This document shows, one piece after another, positions 1 to 7,480 of a DNA stretch of 7,480 nucleotides. Numbering within the stretch: the stretch's first letter is position 1; each line of letters starts with the position of its first letter. The notes under the pieces are model-generated. The model had not been told where the DNA came from, did not search any database, and was given only the letters and a program-made list of their open reading frames with translations. The DNA comes from a virus (lineage: Duplodnaviria; Heunggongvirae; Uroviricota; Caudoviricetes): IMG/VR virus record IMGVR_UViG_2690316225_000012, one strand, 5' to 3'. The position numbers and the translations under genes were made by a program.

Positions 1-1
1 G

Positions 2-109
2 AATTACGAGAAGCGCCATACCAAACAGGGGATACAGACCAACCTGACGCTGAAAGAGGAAAGCTACGGCGACTGGCTGCCAAAATGTGACGACCCTGCG
101 ACAGCCTGA
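2..109 (+). CDS. 3' end of an unidentified gene (last 35 codons; start lies outside the window)
   Basis: Frame 2 is open from the window edge to TGA at 107-109 (...NYEKRHTKQGIQTNLTLKEESYGDWLPKCDDPATA*); the other two + frames contain stops. A terminator hairpin follows immediately. Product not recognised. Confidence 0.4.
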   Translation, partial: NYEKRHTKQGIQTNLTLKEESYGDWLPKCDDPATA

Positions 110-115
110 CCCACC

Positions 116-140
116 TGACCGGCATCTGCCGGTCTTTTTT
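116..140 (+). terminator. Rho-independent terminator
   Basis: Stem GACCGGC (116-122), loop ATCT, stem GCCGGTC (127-133), then T7 (134-140), 7 nt after the stop codon of the upstream partial ORF. Confidence 0.7.
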
Positions 141-470
141 TATCCCTGAATTCCCCGAAGGTGAACAATCCACTGTTCACCCTTCACCGTACATTCACCC
201 GTTATCACACTGAAATTTAAAGAGAAAAATGAAAGGTGAACAGTGTGAACAATCAAATCAAAAAAAAACTTTTTTCTCCCTGTGTGATTTCAGTTCGGGG
301 GATTAATCACCGGTATGAGTCACACCGGCAGAATGCCGGAGGTGAAGAATCGAATGTTCACCCTTCACCCATTATTCACCACCTATCACTCTGAAATAAA
401 AGGAGAAAATCAAAGGGTGAACAGTGTGAACAGTTCTTTCGAAAAAAAATTTTTTTCCTGTACGATATAG
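116..470. repeat. Two direct repeat units, about 180-bp period, roughly 80% identical by eye (approx. 116-288 and 325-468), each with internal palindromes and A/T tracts
   Basis: Unit A: GTGAACA(161-167)...TGTTCAC(174-180), TTCACC at 183-188 and 195-200, GGTGAACAGTGTGAACA (235-251), A-tract then T-tract (260-275). Unit B has the same order at +181: CCCTTCACCC (361-370), GGTGAACAGTGTGAACA (416-432), A8T7 (442-456). Each unit is preceded by a CCGGCA-N-TGCCGG hairpin (118-131; 325-339). No ORF in the track covers this region. Confidence 0.7.
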
Positions 471-743
471 CATCAATCCAAGTAAAAATGCGCTTTCATT
501 TCACATTAACTTACAGCCATTGGTATACGATTAGGTATACGCACAAAAACTGAATTAAACAAAATCGTTAAAAATCAAAGCAATATAATATTTATTCAAA
601 CTCCGCCAGCCCCCAATCATGATTGGACGGTGTAAGGACAACACCAACAAAAACAGGAAGTTAGCAGTCTCAGCAGGACACCGACCAGACGGTGAGGAGA
701 CAAAAAAGGATACGCAAAGGAGCCGCGGCTCTCAAGTGTGAAA

Positions 744-769
744 GAAGCCCGCAAATTGCGGGCTTTTTT
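744..769 (+). terminator. Rho-independent terminator
   Basis: GC-rich stem GCCCGC (747-752) / GCGGGC (758-763), extendable by A-T pairs, loop AAATT, followed by T6 (764-769). No ORF upstream, so it may end a non-coding transcript or insulate orf343. Confidence 0.8.
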
Positions 770-824
770 ATTGATCAGTCAACAATAAACAGTAACCGAA
801 TGAGAATTTAATAAGGATATTCAT

Positions 825-1856
825 ATGGAAGCTACTGTGGATTCGATTGATTTTCTGATCCGTAGTGAAGATGATTTTCTAAACTTTCTGGAAGAAATGA
901 AAGCCCGAGAGGGGCTTGATTCTAAAGAGTTTATTTTCCCTAACGTAAAGTTTGCAGGCTGGCCATCCTTAGACATAAATGTAAAAGGAGAGCGGTATCA
1001 TTCATCAATTACATCAGCAATGTTGTTTGGTATGTCAATGCTCAACGAGGAGATACAGCGGGCGTTTGCAACCATACGATACGGATCGCAGAATCTTCAA
1101 CGCTTGACTAATGAAGACAAGCAACGACTTGATATAAATTTTAAAATTAGCGAAGGTTCTAGTGATGCGGAAGGCACCACTGACAAGATCATCAACGCAG
1201 TAACTGATTTTTTGCGAGATACTATGTCTGGACTGAACGGCTGGCAGAAAATGCTTGTTATAATCACAATGGTTGGCGCGGCCAGCACATGTGGTTATCA
1301 CTACATTTCAGAAAATGCCGTAACAGAAAGACATGCAACTGATCGGCAGGTTGAAATTGCAAAAACCACATCCGATGGCATAAACAAAGCCATAGAAGCA
1401 ACATTAGATTATAAAATCTATGGGAAATCAGCGATTAGCGATAAAGTTACTAGTCACGGACAAGCAGGTAAAAGTGCTTTAGTGAAGCAATTAGCTGCTG
1501 ATCCTACTGTCGAAACCGTGACTTTAGGAAATGAGAAACTAACACGACAAGACCTAAATACCTACAACAGCCGACAATCTGTAGATAGAGAACGTAAAGA
1601 ACGAACTGATATATTTTCCATCAAAGGTGTAACCAGAACAGGGCCAACAAATCAGGATATTAATATTAACGTTGTTAGGGTCTCTAATGACGAATGCTTC
1701 ACAATCAAAGCTTCAGCTGATGTTATCACCCAAGATGAGTTGACAGCTATTGTTGACGCTTTGTCAAACAACTCTCATATTAAAATCAGTTACTTAGAGG
1801 TAATTGAAAAGGGTGCTGTTTCTATAGGTCAGTTCAACACTATTGTTTCAGAATAA
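825..1856 (+). CDS. Hypothetical protein, 343 aa, with one central hydrophobic (likely transmembrane) segment; AT-rich cargo gene of unknown function
   Basis: Long ORF with ATG at 825 and an AAGGA ribosome-binding site at 813-817 (7-nt spacing). Hydrophobic stretch WQKMLVIITMVGAASTCGYHYI. Visibly more AT-rich than the tail genes. No motif I can assign to a known family. Confidence 0.8.
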   Translation: MEATVDSIDFLIRSEDDFLNFLEEMKAREGLDSKEFIFPNVKFAGWPSLDINVKGERYHSSITSAMLFGMSMLNEEIQRAFATIRYGSQNLQRLTNEDKQRLDINFKISEGSSDAEGTTDKIINAVTDFLRDTMSGLNGWQKMLVIITMVGAASTCGYHYISENAVTERHATDRQVEIAKTTSDGINKAIEATLDYKIYGKSAISDKVTSHGQAGKSALVKQLAADPTVETVTLGNEKLTRQDLNTYNSRQSVDRERKERTDIFSIKGVTRTGPTNQDININVVRVSNDECFTIKASADVITQDELTAIVDALSNNSHIKISYLEVIEKGAVSIGQFNTIVSE

Positions 1857-1907
1857 TCACTTAACCCCATTTATGTCGGTTGAGGTTATAAGTCACGGAG
1901 ACCAGAT

Positions 1908-2252
1908 ATGTCCTTAAAGTATGCACATGAAAAATTTCATACTGCAGTACTTACTCTTGCGGGCCATGGAAGTATTCAAGAACGCTTGATTAATTCGTAT
2001 GTTTTTAGCCTTGGGCATCTTAAAACAGCCGATGATATTCCAAATGCCTTACAAAGCAGGTTCGATGAATTATGTAAGGAACTGACTAAGTTTGATGCCA
2101 CTGGCGATGAGGGGCGAGTTCAAGCAACAGTATCAAAACTTAACGATTTCGAGATCAATAAACTGATCGAAGATATTGTCAGTCTTAACGATGATATTTG
2201 CATGAAATTGGCTCTGACGGATGAGACTTACCAAGACATACACCAAAGTTAA
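1908..2252 (+). CDS. Hypothetical acidic protein, 114 aa; its last 27 codons lie inside the left inverted repeat
   Basis: ATG at 1908 with GGAG at 1897-1900 (7-nt spacing), 51 bp after orf343, same strand and AT-rich composition. Stop at 2250-2252, followed by a hairpin at 2280-2302. Confidence 0.75.
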   Translation: MSLKYAHEKFHTAVLTLAGHGSIQERLINSYVFSLGHLKTADDIPNALQSRFDELCKELTKFDATGDEGRVQATVSKLNDFEINKLIEDIVSLNDDICMKLALTDETYQDIHQS

Positions 2253-2279
2253 TTGATTAAATTCAAAAAGTTAACGTTC

Positions 2280-2302
2280 AACCAGCCAGTTTTTGGCTGG
2301 TT
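2280..2302 (+). terminator. Hairpin terminator downstream of orf114 (convergent with orf70)
   Basis: AACCAGCC (2280-2287), loop AGTTTTT, GGCTGGTT (2295-2302), followed by TATTGTCTT. Sits between the convergent orf114 and orf70. Confidence 0.55.
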
Positions 2303-2336
2303 TATTGTCTTATAATATTCTTGCTCGAATGATGCA

Positions 2337-2549
2337 CTATTTATGATGTAATCCGGACATCAGTTCATGGACAAGATTATCTCTTTCATTGTGTTGCAAC
2401 CGTAAATGCATAGCAAAAAGGTGAGCACTATCCTCATTCCTCTTCAAGCCATGCTGTTCAAGATACCCGAAAAAACGGCTTCTCTTATCCGCTATTTCCT
2501 GAGTCTGACGTGCAACATTTACCAAATTTTCTAGCGTTTTTCTTGGCAT
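2337..2549 (-). CDS. Hypothetical small basic protein, 70 aa, immediately downstream of pin (copy 1)
   Basis: Identical to ORF 6135-6347; the strong AGGAGG ribosome-binding site read from the right copy (6122-6127, 7 nt before the ATG) is present here by symmetry. Product not recognised. Confidence 0.6.
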   Translation of the reverse strand: MPRKTLENLVNVARQTQEIADKRSRFFGYLEQHGLKRNEDSAHLFAMHLRLQHNERDNLVHELMSGLHHK

Positions 2550-2747
2550 ACTATTTCCTCCTGAAATTGTTGTAATTCACTAGGATATTCATTTTAATTT
2601 GTATCATTTAGTACCAAAACCGCTATCAATTAACAAAGCCATCGTTGTGGTTTACCTTGCAGCCGTTTTTTGTCATTGACTCTATGTGAAAATAATGAAT
2701 CATCATGAGATTGGCTCACACGTTCTTGAATTCGACGAGCTGTGTCT

Positions 2748-3302
2748 TTATTTATCTCCTGCCGGAAACCTCTGATACAAAGTCGATACGCCAACATCAT
2801 AGATAATCGCAACTTTCTGGCGCGGAACTCCTGATGCAATTAATCGTCCGGCTTGTGCCCATTGTTCTGGTGTAAGTTTGGGACGACGTCCACCAATTCG
2901 TCCCTGTGCGCGAGCAGCTTCCAGTCCAGCTTTTGTTCGTTCAACAATCAGTTCTCGTTCCATTTCAGCCAGGGCCCCCATCACATGAAAGAAAAAGCGC
3001 CCCATTGGGGTACTGGTATCAATTGAATCCGTCAGACTACGAAAGTTGATGCCTCGTTCGCGCAACTCCTCCACCAGCACGACAAGATGCCGCATACTGC
3101 GCCCCAGTCGGTCCAGTTTCCAGACCACCAGCGTATCGCCTGCCGATAATGTCCTGAGCAGTTTTTTCAGTCCCGGCCTTTCGGACTTTGTACCGCTTAT
3201 CTTGTCTTCAAAAATCAGCTCGCATCCTGCACAGTTCAGCGCATTACGTTGTAGATCTGTGTTCTGGTCATTTGTTGACACACGTACATAGCCAATAAGC
3301 AT
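2748..3302 (-). CDS. pin: Serine DNA invertase, Hin/Gin/Cin/Pin family (copy 1), 184 aa
   Basis: Translation MLIGYVRVSTNDQ... has the N-terminal catalytic Ser10 motif of small serine recombinases and a C-terminal helix-turn-helix region (GVPRQKVAIIYDVGVSTLYQRF). Preferred start is the internal ATG at 3300-3302, which has a GGAG site 7 nt upstream, not the ORF-track start at 3338. I recognise it as e14 Pin-like. Confidence 0.9.
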   Translation of the reverse strand: MLIGYVRVSTNDQNTDLQRNALNCAGCELIFEDKISGTKSERPGLKKLLRTLSAGDTLVVWKLDRLGRSMRHLVVLVEELRERGINFRSLTDSIDTSTPMGRFFFHVMGALAEMERELIVERTKAGLEAARAQGRIGGRRPKLTPEQWAQAGRLIASGVPRQKVAIIYDVGVSTLYQRFPAGDK

Positions 3303-3356
3303 GGTAGATCTCCCTGACAAAAGCAGGAATGATGCCATTTGCTCGTTATTTCTGCA

Positions 3357-3382
3357 TTTTCATAAACGTTGGTTTGGGAGAA
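3357..3382. other. 26-bp invertase crossover site 1 (pix/gix/hix-like)
   Basis: TTTTCATAAACG-TT-GGTTTGGGAGAA: two imperfectly palindromic 12-bp half-sites around a 2-bp AA/TT core, matching the architecture of hixL/gixL/cix sites. Located between pin and variable cassette A, in frame for GLGE. Confidence 0.75.
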
Positions 3383-3383
3383 G

Positions 3384-3823
3384 CGGCAAAACGAAATGTG
3401 GGCAACGGGGAAAACCAAATCCCTGATATGTCTTTCTGGACGGTTACTGGTGGCAATGGAAATTTTGTGATTCGTCAACCTGACGGGCTAATCATTCAGA
3501 TGGTTACTGTAAGTATAAGCGGTCCAGTGGCGATGAATGGAATGACTGATAATGCTTATGCCATTACAGGTTCTAATAAGTCTTATATTGCCACAGCCAC
3601 ATTGCCCTTTGTATTTCCTAATAAGGTGCTGGGCGTTATCCCTCTGGTATCAACAACAGCTTATGGTGGTGTATCCAGTAATATTACAGGTTCATACGCG
3701 ACGGCGGTTTGTTCTTTTGCCGCTGTCAGGGGGAATAATACGATTGTGTTCAAAGTCGACAAACCACTGAATGCAGCCTTTCCTTCAGATACCAGCGTCT
3801 CAGCGTTAATCATTGGACGGTAA
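3384..3823 (+). CDS. Side tail-fibre C-terminal variable cassette A (no start codon of its own; in frame with the GLGE codons of site 1)
   Basis: ORF track 3329-3823; the first 18 residues (MMPFARYFCIFINVGLGE) are read from pin-upstream and crossover-site sequence shared with cassette B, so the listed start is not real. Sequence diverges from cassette B exactly after GLGE. Confidence 0.75.
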
Positions 3824-3825
3824 GA

Positions 3826-4269
3826 ATGAACTCAGTATTCTTTTCACCCGCAAGTAAAAGTTTTTATCTGCAAGAATTGTTTCCAGAATATGAGGATGCG
3901 GGAACGCTTCCTGATGATGTTATTGAAATTACCAGAGAAACATATGAGCAATTTCTTGGGCTGCATCCAGAAGGGAAAGAAATTGGCGCTGACAGTTCAG
4001 GACGGCCAATATGGATTAATTCCCCGCCGCCTTCAAAAGAGGATGAGATGCTGGCGGCTGAAATGAAAAAGATATCTTTGGTTTCAGAAGTCAATACCTA
4101 CATCAATACCCATCAGTGGCCTGGCAAAGCTGCTATTGGTCGTCTGAAAGGTTACGAGCTGGAACAATATAATTTATGGCTGGATTATCTGGACGCACTG
4201 GAACTGGTTGATACCTCCAGTGCTCCAGATATTGAATGGCCTACGCCTCCGGTAGTTCAGGCCAGATGA
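3826..4269 (+). CDS. Tail fibre assembly protein (Tfa), paired with cassette A
   Basis: 147 aa ending ...YLDALELVDTSSAPDIEWPTPP, the conserved Tfa C-terminal motif. ATG lies 2 nt after the cassette A stop. Confidence 0.85.
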   Translation: MNSVFFSPASKSFYLQELFPEYEDAGTLPDDVIEITRETYEQFLGLHPEGKEIGADSSGRPIWINSPPPSKEDEMLAAEMKKISLVSEVNTYINTHQWPGKAAIGRLKGYELEQYNLWLDYLDALELVDTSSAPDIEWPTPPVVQAR

Positions 4270-4846
4270 CATCCGGCGCGGTGCTGGTATCTGTTGCAGT
4301 CACCGCGTCAATGTAATCCAGCACAGCGTTAAGCCGGGTTGTTTCTGCCTGCGTCAGCTTCCGCCCGGCCTGCAATTTCAGCTGAATCAGACTAATGGAA
4401 GCCATAGCAGCATCAATCAGTGACTGGCGCCGTACTTCTGCCGCGTCTACTGCGGCGTTATGCTGTGCCTCAGTATCGGTCACCCATTTCTCACCATCCC
4501 ATTTATCGTATGACGTTAACGGGGCGATAGTGGTTGTATTTTCAGGGTAATCACCCGGAACTGTGATTTCTTTTGATTCTCCTGTTTCGGTGCTATAGAC
4601 GATTTCACCGCGATGGTCTGGCACATATTCCCATGAGTTAAAATCTGCAGAACGGCAAATTGCATAACCAGCTTTATATGAGCCAGGAGCATCTAAACAG
4701 GAACATGCCGGGATACCAACACCCACAGCAAGATATTCAGTTGATGTGGAAATATATTCCCGTGTTTCACCATCATAATTATAAACGGTAATGTCTCCGG
4801 CCTTTGTGGCGATGAGTTCATTATTTAATACAGCTTTACTTATCAT
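4241..4846 (-). CDS. Tail fibre assembly protein (Tfa), paired with cassette B
   Basis: 201 aa ending ...LDYIDAVTATDTSTAPDVIWPELPEA (Tfa C-terminal motif). Start overlaps the cassette B stop as ATGA (4843-4846); its 3' end overlaps the other tfa by 29 bp. Confidence 0.85.
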   Translation of the reverse strand: MISKAVLNNELIATKAGDITVYNYDGETREYISTSTEYLAVGVGIPACSCLDAPGSYKAGYAICRSADFNSWEYVPDHRGEIVYSTETGESKEITVPGDYPENTTTIAPLTSYDKWDGEKWVTDTEAQHNAAVDAAEVRRQSLIDAAMASISLIQLKLQAGRKLTQAETTRLNAVLDYIDAVTATDTSTAPDVIWPELPEA

Positions 4847-5300
4847 GCAGCCCTCACAATATAATTAAAGGCGATGTTACGGGAGCGGGTTTCAGATGCT
4901 GTGCGAACTGAGCGAGATGCGTCGAATGTCCAGTTATAAGCGCCATAACCCTCAATAATTTCGGCTTCCTTTAGACCTGTAGATAATACTTGCCCATGTT
5001 GACTAAATGGCCCTGAACTAAGTACGTCTCTAAAAAGCTGGGTACGCCCAAAAGAACCAACAATATTCTGAATTGCATCATTCTGTGCAGATAATAAGTT
5101 ACGACCAGAGTCAATCCCGCGCCCATCATCCCAGCCACGAATAAATTCACCGCGTAAATCTGGTAATTTTAATGTTGGGTAAGCCTTTGCCAGATTTGGG
5201 TACTTTTCAGAAGAAAATACTGCTCCGTTACATTTTAGCCACCCCGTTGGCGGAGTGGCGGAAGGCCACGGAACAGGCACACCAACGGGTAATGCCGAAC
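4843..5300 (-). CDS. Side tail-fibre C-terminal variable cassette B (no start codon of its own; in frame with the GLGE codons of site 2)
   Basis: ORF track 4843-5355. After GLGE: GSALPVGVPVPWPSATPPTGWLKCNGAVFSSEKYPNLAKAYPTLKLPDLRGEFIRGWDDGRG...RNIAFNYIVRAA, which I recognise as a Mu S / e14 StfE-type fibre C-terminus. Confidence 0.8.
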
Positions 5301-5301
5301 C

Positions 5302-5327
5302 TTCTCCCAAACCAACGTTTATGAAAA
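5302..5327. other. 26-bp invertase crossover site 2 (inverted copy of site 1)
   Basis: TTCTCCCAAACC-AA-CGTTTATGAAAA; exact reverse complement of site 1; encodes FINVGLGE on the minus strand at the start of cassette B. Confidence 0.75.
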
Positions 5328-5381
5328 TGCAGAAATAACGAGCAAATGGCATCATTCCTGCTTTTGTCAGGGAGATCTACC

Positions 5382-5936
5382 ATGCTTATTGGCTATGTAC
5401 GTGTGTCAACAAATGACCAGAACACAGATCTACAACGTAATGCGCTGAACTGTGCAGGATGCGAGCTGATTTTTGAAGACAAGATAAGCGGTACAAAGTC
5501 CGAAAGGCCGGGACTGAAAAAACTGCTCAGGACATTATCGGCAGGCGATACGCTGGTGGTCTGGAAACTGGACCGACTGGGGCGCAGTATGCGGCATCTT
5601 GTCGTGCTGGTGGAGGAGTTGCGCGAACGAGGCATCAACTTTCGTAGTCTGACGGATTCAATTGATACCAGTACCCCAATGGGGCGCTTTTTCTTTCATG
5701 TGATGGGGGCCCTGGCTGAAATGGAACGAGAACTGATTGTTGAACGAACAAAAGCTGGACTGGAAGCTGCTCGCGCACAGGGACGAATTGGTGGACGTCG
5801 TCCCAAACTTACACCAGAACAATGGGCACAAGCCGGACGATTAATTGCATCAGGAGTTCCGCGCCAGAAAGTTGCGATTATCTATGATGTTGGCGTATCG
5901 ACTTTGTATCAGAGGTTTCCGGCAGGAGATAAATAA
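5382..5936 (+). CDS. pin: Serine DNA invertase, Hin/Gin/Cin/Pin family (copy 2), 184 aa
   Basis: Identical translation to copy 1; GGAG at 5371-5374, ATG at 5382. The ORF-track start at 5346 adds 12 codons with no ribosome-binding site and is not preferred. Confidence 0.9.
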   Translation: MLIGYVRVSTNDQNTDLQRNALNCAGCELIFEDKISGTKSERPGLKKLLRTLSAGDTLVVWKLDRLGRSMRHLVVLVEELRERGINFRSLTDSIDTSTPMGRFFFHVMGALAEMERELIVERTKAGLEAARAQGRIGGRRPKLTPEQWAQAGRLIASGVPRQKVAIIYDVGVSTLYQRFPAGDK

Positions 5937-6134
5937 AGACACAGCTCGTCGAATTCAAGAACGTGTGAGCCAATCTCATGATGATTCATTATTTTCACAT
6001 AGAGTCAATGACAAAAAACGGCTGCAAGGTAAACCACAACGATGGCTTTGTTAATTGATAGCGGTTTTGGTACTAAATGATACAAATTAAAATGAATATC
6101 CTAGTGAATTACAACAATTTCAGGAGGAAATAGT

Positions 6135-6347
6135 ATGCCAAGAAAAACGCTAGAAAATTTGGTAAATGTTGCACGTCAGACTCAGGAAATAGCGGATAAG
6201 AGAAGCCGTTTTTTCGGGTATCTTGAACAGCATGGCTTGAAGAGGAATGAGGATAGTGCTCACCTTTTTGCTATGCATTTACGGTTGCAACACAATGAAA
6301 GAGATAATCTTGTCCATGAACTGATGTCCGGATTACATCATAAATAG
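6135..6347 (+). CDS. Hypothetical small basic protein, 70 aa, downstream of pin (copy 2)
   Basis: AGGAGG at 6122-6127, ATG at 6135; identical to 2337-2549 (-). Confidence 0.6.
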   Translation: MPRKTLENLVNVARQTQEIADKRSRFFGYLEQHGLKRNEDSAHLFAMHLRLQHNERDNLVHELMSGLHHK

Positions 6348-6381
6348 TGCATCATTCGAGCAAGAATATTATAAGACAATA

Positions 6382-6404
6382 AACCAGCCAAAAACTGGCT
6401 GGTT
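6382..6404 (-). terminator. Hairpin terminator (inverted-repeat copy of 2280-2302), here oriented to end the truncated fibre transcript
   Basis: Reverse complement of the 2280-2302 hairpin; on the minus strand the stem is followed by TATTGTCTT. Confidence 0.5.
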
Positions 6405-6431
6405 GAACGTTAACTTTTTGAATTTAATCAA

Positions 6432-6818
6432 TTAACTTTGGTGTATGTCTTGGTAAGTCTCATCCGTCAGAGCCAATTTCATGCAAATATCATCGTTAAG
6501 ACTGACAATATCTACTTCTCCCAAACCAAGGTTTTCGAGAGCCGTTTTCACCGTGCCATCAGATTTGATATCGCCAAACGGATTCTTGCGGCTTAACAGC
6601 AGCGCACGAAGCGCGGTAAGCAGCTGGTCATGCCGCCCCTTCTCCAGGCTGGCACCGGATGCCTCCACCACGCTGCAGAGTTCTTCCTGCAACATGTCAA
6701 AGTAGTCATCATCCAGATCGGTGGCAGGTGTGCCGGTCTGGGGGTTACCACGGGTAAAACCGTTCTTACCCGCGCCGAACTTATCCTTCTGCGCGGTTTT
6801 CGTGTCTATACGATGCAT
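6432..6818 (-). CDS. Side tail-fibre N-terminal constant domain, fused in this arrangement to a 27-aa tail copied from orf114 (truncated fibre)
   Basis: ATG at 6816-6818 with GGAG 7 nt upstream, 3 nt after the YmfQ-like stop. [21 protein letters not shown]...[10 protein letters not shown] looks like a fibre N-terminal domain and ends in the GLGE crossover-site codons. The ORF then runs into the inverted repeat and ends [27 protein letters not shown], identical to the orf114 C-terminus. Confidence 0.7.
6516..6541. other. 26-bp invertase crossover site 3, inside the fibre constant-domain gene
   Basis: TTCTCCCAAACC-AA-GGTTTTCGAGAG: the left half-site is identical to that of site 2, the right half-site is fibre-specific; encodes LENLGLGE in the fibre frame; 2 nt from the inverted-repeat boundary. 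Confidence 0.7.
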
Positions 6819-6821
6819 GGA

Positions 6822-7479
<658 letters not shown>

Positions 7480-7480
7480 C

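Follow-up and report, generated by a model that had tools for sequence, protein, structure and literature searches.

How did a prophage tail-fibre switch of the Pin type come to carry two identical invertase genes in inverted orientation, one of them with a fragment of a neighbouring gene joined to the fibre gene, and did the invertase itself make that joint? We investigated this question in a stretch of 7,480 nt of Escherichia coli prophage DNA, hereafter the window. An earlier note on this DNA had proposed that the right-hand pin copy is derived and the left arm ancestral, that an AT-rich piece of orf114 is embedded in the GC-richer fibre gene with its junction exactly at the end of a crossover site, and that an invertase-mediated event at a secondary site, or an intermolecular exchange, was responsible and not random illegitimate recombination.

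Layout of the window and prophage context

From left to right, the window holds a P4-like primase gene's 3' end with crr-like repeats after it (1-457), an imperfect ssrA 3'-end copy (595-617; the att repeat), orf343, orf114, orf70, pin, an invertible segment, a second pin-orf70 pair, the constant part of a fibre gene, a ymfQ-like (Mu Gp48) gene (6822-7394, minus strand) and the start of an IS3-family element. The prophage is a truncated, cryptic Mu/SfV-type remnant at ssrA with an e14-type Pin tail-fibre switch. The primase 3' end, the crr-like repeats and the ssrA 3'-end copy within 1-617 indicate that a P4-like satellite lies in tandem with this remnant at ssrA, and the same P4-like/ssrA context was identified in GCA_977067085.1. 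The crr-like repeats are two direct repeats of about 120 nt, rich in TGTTCACC/GGTGAACA, at 155-276 and 336-457. Scans for tRNA/tmRNA and against Rfam gave no match over the whole window. At the right end, ymfQ is slightly shortened (190 aa, against 194 aa in intact prophages), and the IS3-family element, occupying 7395-7480 of the window with its transposase ORF starting at 7455, begins directly after it. This element removes the rest of the prophage, leaving the fibre switch in a small remnant.

The slot between att and pin (825-2549) is a cargo hotspot across relatives, in which we identified GmrSD, a LEM-3 GIY-YIG protein, DpnII-type restriction-modification, McrA or a 1484-aa protein. In this window the slot is occupied by orf343, orf114 and orf70, none of which had a match in Pfam, PADLOC or NCBIfam; orf343 matches phrog_6191 only, a family of unknown function. 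It is possible that all three are uncharacterised defence genes. Three GC-rich hairpins, terminator-like in having T/A runs after or beside them, were found at 741-769, 2280-2302 and 6382-6404; that at 2280-2302 lies between the convergent orf114 and orf70, and has been duplicated along with the arm described below.

A Din-family switch with three crossover sites

The left pin copy (2748-3302, minus strand) encodes a serine DNA invertase of 184 aa, annotated pinE in relatives, with a resolvase domain (PF00239, E=1.8e-51) and a C-terminal helix-turn-helix (HTH_7, PF02796, E=4e-13). It matches the Gin structures 3uj3/4m6f at E=1e-93 over residues 1-181, and has the form of a small serine recombinase of the Din family, close to Gin and Pin. 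The first 250 bp of pin contain several G-N13-C candidates for Fis-enhancer sites 47-50 bp apart, identified in a crude scan with a motif that is highly degenerate.

A degenerate pattern for the 26-bp (12-2-12) crossover site has three matches in the window, where 0.01 would be expected by chance. All three are given here on the plus strand: site1 (3357-3382) reads TTTTCATAAACG TT GGTTTGGGAGAA, with its core at 3369-3370; site2 (5302-5327) reads TTCTCCCAAACC AA CGTTTATGAAAA, with its core at 5314-5315, and has the junction found in the flipped natural isomer; and site3 (6516-6541), which lies complete in the fibre gene, reads TTCTCCCAAACC AA GGTTTTCGAGAG, with its core at 6528-6529. The inverted sites 1 and 2 bound the invertible segment (3384-5300), which holds alternative fibre C-termini and their chaperones, namely cassette A (3384-3823) and tfaA (3826-4269) on the plus strand, and tfaB (4241-4843) and cassette B (4843-5300) on the minus strand. 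Gp53-like_C, Collar and Caudo_TAP domains were identified within this segment. The constant N-terminal part of the fibre (6515-6818, minus strand) comprises 101 aa and ends in ...GLGE; phrog tail-fibre families cover residues 1-109, and the same N-terminus is found on the full fibres of relatives.

In E. coli 602687 (NZ_CP189657) the fibre consists of the constant part and cassette B, and in PS1Thumoskin9 of the constant part and cassette A, in DNA that is otherwise identical (loci L001 and L004). The segment therefore occurs in both orientations, with the exchange at the central dinucleotide, which is where Din-family invertases exchange strands within the 26-bp site (PMC4134206). The presence of the same element in opposite orientations in these two strains indicates that Pin is, to judge from the genomes, active in this lineage. 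Separately, we noted a weak site-like 26-mer within orf343 (1507-1532; CTGTCGAAACCG TG ACTTTAGGAAAT), which has 6 mismatches to the site pattern, approximately the level of shuffled sequence, and no sign of use.

The system is a well-known Pin/Gin/Cin switch. It shares with the Din-family systems e14 Pin, Mu Gin and P1 Cin a 184-aa invertase very close to Gin, 26-bp sites of the 12-2-12 form, a constant fibre N-terminus that ends at a site, two C-terminal cassettes each with its own chaperone, the order ymfQ-fibre-tfa-tfa-cassette-pin-cargo, and the occurrence of both orientations in nature. In contrast to those systems, the window has two identical, inverted invertase genes flanking the segment, three sites instead of two, a fibre gene joined at present to part of a cargo gene, so that neither cassette would be expressed, and a location in an IS3-truncated remnant. 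This two-invertase, three-site layout is an unusual singleton, a strain-specific variant of the switch.

Polarity of the duplication

The two invertase genes lie in the arms of a perfect inverted repeat that carries pin and orf70 (2171-3383 against 5301-6513, complementary at 1213/1213 positions). The left arm (2171-3383) comprises the 3' 82 nt of orf114, the terminator hairpin, orf70 (2337-2549, minus strand; 70 aa, function unknown), pin, and the whole of site1 plus a G. The right arm (5301-6513) contains, in reverse order, site2, pin (5382-5936, plus strand), orf70 (6135-6347, plus strand), the hairpin and the orf114 3' fragment. This fragment (6432-6513, minus strand, 82 nt) is the reverse complement of 2171-2252, and thus consists of the last 26 codons of orf114, its stop codon and one extra base; read in orf114's own frame, it supplies the C-terminal 26 aa and the stop of a fusion protein.

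Several lines of evidence bear on which arm came first. The left orf114 (1908-2252, plus strand; 114 aa, function unknown) is the only whole copy, preceded by GGAG 7 nt before its ATG, so that the 82 bp are complete, with a start codon and ribosome-binding site, on the left only, as previously proposed; the same protein is annotated in 602687 and in other strains. The described contrast in composition was likewise borne out when GC and GC3 were calculated: the fragment has 36.6% GC, similar to orf114 (38.6%) and orf343 (39.5%), against 55.3% in the fibre constant part (6515-6818) and 57.2% in ymfQ, and GC3 is 0.34 in orf114 against 0.62 in the fibre constant part.

Comparison with prophages of the canonical gene order recovered the ancestral single-pin junctions. 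When 5301-6514 is removed, the window equals the single-pin locus of 602687, with 0 mismatches from 618 to the window end and gaps only in the imperfect att repeat (595-617). The same reduced sequence is colinear with GCA_977067085.1 over 1-7480 at 99.6%, including the P4-like left flank. Both genomes have the arrangement orf343-orf114-orf70-pin-cassette-tfa-tfa-fibre-ymfQ, with one pin each. More broadly, orf114 and orf70 (1908-2420) were identified in 46 of 5426 complete E. coli genomes, in every one of which (46/46) they are single, contiguous and at least 99% identical to the window.

We considered the reverse polarity, in which the right-hand arrangement would be ancestral and the left orf114 chimeric. 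Nothing was found in its favour, and it is wholly improbable, because each of the 46 complete genomes with orf114 has it uninterrupted at 2170/2171 and lacks the right-hand joint, and because the composition of the 82 bp is that of orf114, not of the fibre. In addition, the diverged homologues P0002/P0003 (84-86% identity) align straight across codon 88, where the repeat starts, indicating that orf114 is not a chimera. Nor did we find any genome where the 82 bp natively follow the fibre constant part: this part matches more than 1800 genomes, and each match breaks at 6515. The view that the right copy is derived and the left ancestral is therefore strongly supported by the genomes compared. 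The right arm is 100% identical to the left arm and to the single copy in relatives (loci L001 and L025), indicating that the right copy is very young.

Anatomy of the novel joint

The joint between the right arm and the fibre gene reads ...GACAATATCT (ending at 6513), A (6514), C (6515), TTCTCCCAAACC AA GG.... The orphan A at 6514 matches neither parent, as orf114 would give T at this position, and cassettes A and B G and C, respectively. The joint lies 13-15 bp away from the central AA (6528-6529), on the outer boundary of the variable half-site, and exactly where all cassettes diverge, both in the window and in 26 related loci. The proposal of a junction exactly at the end of a crossover site holds in so far as this is the outer edge and the divergence point of the cassettes. 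It requires correction in that the orf114 fragment ends at 6513 and not at 6515, with a base of neither parent after it, and in that this edge is 13-15 bp removed from the core at which strands are exchanged.

The joint appears to be confined to this DNA. In 1879 E. coli genomes every BLAST match is interrupted at 6513/6515, the joint is spanned in 0/5426 complete E. coli genomes, and it was absent from the phage records, GTDB species representatives and JGI metagenomes searched; an exact look-up of the 128-aa fusion protein that it creates returned no record. A few BLAST matches (H61-H64) run 12-15 nt past the site into the fragment, and these we attribute to chance similarity of an unrelated cassette (GLGE-ARYVIQ). 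A cassette natively carrying TA before the half-site was also considered, of which the sole exact match was an unrelated Flavobacterium contig.

The insert relative to single-pin relatives (5301-6514, 1214 bp) is flanked by a 15-bp direct repeat, CTTCTCCCAAACCAA, at 5301-5315 and 6515-6529, which is the site itself and not a true target-site duplication, in agreement with the earlier note. Insertion of a transposable element can be set aside, as the insert ends in an orf114 fragment on one side and in a crossover site on the other, its flanking repeat pre-existed, and its sole enzyme gene is pin. We searched the surroundings for a local template of the filler base or of a 3-nt insertion, but the junction k-mers showed no repeat that was informative. 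Both endpoints contain GAAG (2169-2172 and 3380-3383), though out of register: a microhomology joint via GAAG/CTTC would give GAGAAGATATT where GAGAAGTAGATATT is observed, and ATATCTTCTCCC where ATATCTACTTCTCCC is observed.

A secondary crossover site in orf114

Within orf114 we identified a quasi-crossover site, Q (2130-2155, plus strand), which reads GTATCAAAACTT AA CGATTTCGAGAT with its core at 2142-2143. Q has 6 mismatches to the degenerate site pattern and lies 15 nt from the breakpoint. A search with the orf114 protein led to a fusion of 122 aa (P0005) on a contig (L016) of the draft genome GCA_042170565.1. In L016, pin and orf70 are inverted and orf114 is split (contig positions 4540-4580 and 5750-5810). 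The two joints read ...GTATCAAAACTT AA CGTTTATGGAAA... and ...ATCTCGAAATCG TT GGTTTGGGAGAAG followed by the cassette, and this inversion is a reciprocal, conservative exchange between Q and site1, exactly at the core. Such a reciprocal inversion implies that Pin binds orf114, and Q may accordingly be described, from the L016 joints, as a functional secondary Pin site, through which pin itself has been flipped in another strain. The L016-type isomer was found in 0/5426 complete genomes. Use of a weakly matching 26-mer in a neighbouring gene, as in GCA_042170565.1, resembles the quasi-site recombination described for P1 Cin.

The earlier note's proposal was thus right in part, in that orf114 does hold a secondary Pin site, used in L016, at 15 nt from the breakpoint; the joint in the window is not its product. 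A quasi-site product is joined at the core, has hybrid half-sites and undergoes no change of base, all three of which are found at both L016 joints. The 6513/6515 joint has a different make-up: relative to a core-exchange product, all 26 bp of site3 are kept and one base is added, and the distances from the joint to the cores of site3 and Q are 13-15 bp and 27-28 bp, respectively. These features set it apart from Cin quasi-site products too, through its offset from both cores, its whole primary site and its filler base. We additionally considered quasi-sites centred on 2170-2171 or 6513-6514, at which the 26-mers have no resemblance to a site and the cores are incompatible. Reasoning through the routes open to Pin alone via Q, site1 and site3, we found that all reachable isomers have a single pin, and that none places the 3' end of orf114 against a complete site3.

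The complete site3, the offset from both cores, the extra base and the absence of a Pin-only route to this arrangement together argue that the joint is illegitimate, and not a Pin crossover. It is therefore very unlikely that Pin made it directly, by exchange between the fibre site and a secondary orf114 site, possibly between sister chromosomes, even though the joint abuts a crossover site and the orf114 site has been used by Pin elsewhere. Wild-type invertases strongly disfavour intermolecular and direct-repeat reactions, which counts against such an exchange as well. Quasi-site recombination is itself on record for the related Cin enzyme (Iida & Hiestand-Nauer 1987, as cited in PMC4134206). 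Pin was nonetheless very probably needed to place the copy in inverted orientation, against the fibre site. The contention that the event was not random thus stays plausible, given the role of Pin and the proximity of Q, although the joint itself is illegitimate.

Tandem duplication, Pin inversion and their alternatives

Because the arms are perfectly identical and the structure is present in no other genome, an assembly artefact has to be weighed, in which there is one real pin, and the contig mixes inversion isomers or has taken in chimeric reads or a contig of an alternative allele. Cultures are heterogeneous at invertible prophage fibre regions, and Forde et al. reported that merging of alternative-allele contigs generates artefactual duplications in phage regions (PMC4134206); the window resembles these long-read artefacts in the kind of locus and in having an extra copy beside the fibre segment. 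However, such artefacts join existing alleles and never make a junction that is absent from the isomers. Mis-joining at repeats cannot create new junction sequence, and the joint of orf114 at 2171, an A and a complete site3 occurs in no Pin-reachable isomer of the ancestor, the Q-mediated one included. Moreover, the joint is not a fold-back palindrome of the hairpin-read type, and both arms have unique sequence on both sides. We regard an artefact as unlikely, and the right copy as very probably a recent and real duplicate.

The simplest origin, to which we assign an even chance of being the true one, is a tandem duplication of 2171-3383 with one filler base, followed by an ordinary Pin inversion. 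The 1213-bp unit, containing the orf114 3' end, orf70, pin and the complete site1, would first have been duplicated in tandem, through a joint ...GGTTTGGGAGAAG, T, AGATATTGTC... (3383 to 2171 with the T between them), which would be the sole illegitimate joint of the history. The duplicate would bring with it a second copy of site1, and Pin would then invert conservatively between the upstream site1 copy and the fibre site. This inversion would carry one of the pin genes across to the other side of the invertible segment, set the duplication joint against the fibre crossover site, and turn the tandem copies into inverted ones, between which homologous recombination flips the intervening DNA and no longer deletes a copy. 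That inverted copies are no longer deletable in this way would explain how an otherwise unstable duplication was caught.

We reproduced this course in silico. Starting from the 602687 arrangement, duplication of 2171-3383 with an added T, followed by conservative inversions at the natural cores, yields the window at 7480/7480 positions, and a single inversion suffices from the PS1Thumoskin9 orientation. Apart from the one illegitimate joint, the route thus calls on no reactions other than those which the lineage is seen to carry out, as between 602687 and PS1Thumoskin9. The joint has the structure of a unit end connected to a unit start, and the arrangement is convertible to a tandem array at existing sites. 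The route is in this way shown to be feasible to the exact sequence; the order of events, with duplication before inversion, is inferred. Against the tandem route, direct inverted duplication gives the same sequence, the joint is without usable microhomology, the structure is a singleton, and the end of the unit lies within 1 nt of the site edge, a coincidence of about 0.1-1% if endpoints were random.

The alternative of a direct, replicative inverted duplication by template switching would produce the structure in one step. A strand would copy the first 15 nt of the fibre site (CTTCTCCCAAACCAA), jump to the inverted site1 1.9 kb away, copy back through pin and orf70 into the 3' end of orf114 as far as 2171, and return to the original template at the branch point with the addition of one base. 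Template switching at inverted repeats is described as an established source of inverted duplications (e.g. PMC4689423, PMC10766186). Site1 and site3 are natural inverted repeats, 15 bp of the site recur as direct repeats on either side of the insert, and copying would have ended 15 nt before Q, the quasi-site that Pin binds; a return at the branch point also accounts for a joint at the end of the inter-site homology, more naturally than does the tandem route. This course nonetheless demands two switches in one event, the second without homology, and a homology of 15 nt is small for a distance of 1.9 kb. Its outcome is indistinguishable in sequence from that of tandem duplication and Pin inversion, the steps of which are individually commoner, and we consider it a possible but rather doubtful origin.

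Short-junction tandem duplications and tandem-inversion duplications of enteric bacteria have reportedly been characterised by the Roth and Andersson laboratories. The window shares with them a recent, identical copy of kilobase scale with no or minimal homology at the junction, and an inverted copy tied to short pre-existing inverted repeats. It differs from enteric duplications in that both endpoints adjoin recombinase binding sites, and tandem duplication followed by Pin inversion differs in that the inversion would be due to a recombinase acting on a duplicated site, and not to remodelling deletions.

Both ends of the joint adjoin Pin-binding sequences, one lying 15 nt from the edge of Q and the other 1 nt from the edge of site1/site3. 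As such proximity is unlikely for random endpoints, it suggests that bound or synapsed Pin may have stalled replication and guided the switch, thereby setting the endpoints of the duplication; a synapse of Q with site1 is productive, according to L016. In its strongest form, Pin at its sites, including Q, would direct non-conservative template switching at stalled replication and so promote duplication of its own gene and site, the product being a working three-site, two-invertase switch (fibre A, fibre B and OFF) with one invertase gene inside the invertible segment. We hold this to be distinctly improbable; if true, it would be a de novo move in the direction of multi-site inversion systems, of which Min of p15B is an example.

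Consequences for the fibre gene and the switch

The fibre gene is now a 128-aa fusion (ORF 6432-6818) of 101 constant residues, a Val at the joint and 26 orf114 residues. The fibre constant part is accordingly predicted to be followed by 27 junk residues, with both cassettes in silent positions. A full fibre would be regained if the DNA between site1 and site3 were inverted, which in principle gives the locus three interchangeable states: fibre A, fibre B and OFF. As the IS3-family element cuts the prophage short just beyond ymfQ, none of this bears on virion function. Pin inversions in cryptic prophages have been reported to yield chimeric fibre proteins that block phage adsorption (PMC12529663), and the altered architecture of the switch could change which chimeras a strain makes.

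If the window arose by tandem duplication and Pin inversion, a two-site switch can gain a third site and a second invertase through one sloppy joint and otherwise normal chemistry, and an inversion can trap a tandem duplication that would otherwise be unstable. L016, for its part, is natural proof that off-target invertase activity reshapes neighbouring cargo genes. For annotation, the 128-aa 'fibre' is best treated as an artefactual fusion left by the rearrangement, and the structure should be confirmed at the level of reads.

Finally, both silent cassettes are readable from a shared leader of 18 codons, MMPFARYFCIFINVGLGE, at 3329-3383 and 5301-5355. This leader overlaps the region upstream of pin, and relatives annotate these as separate small 'phage tail protein' genes.
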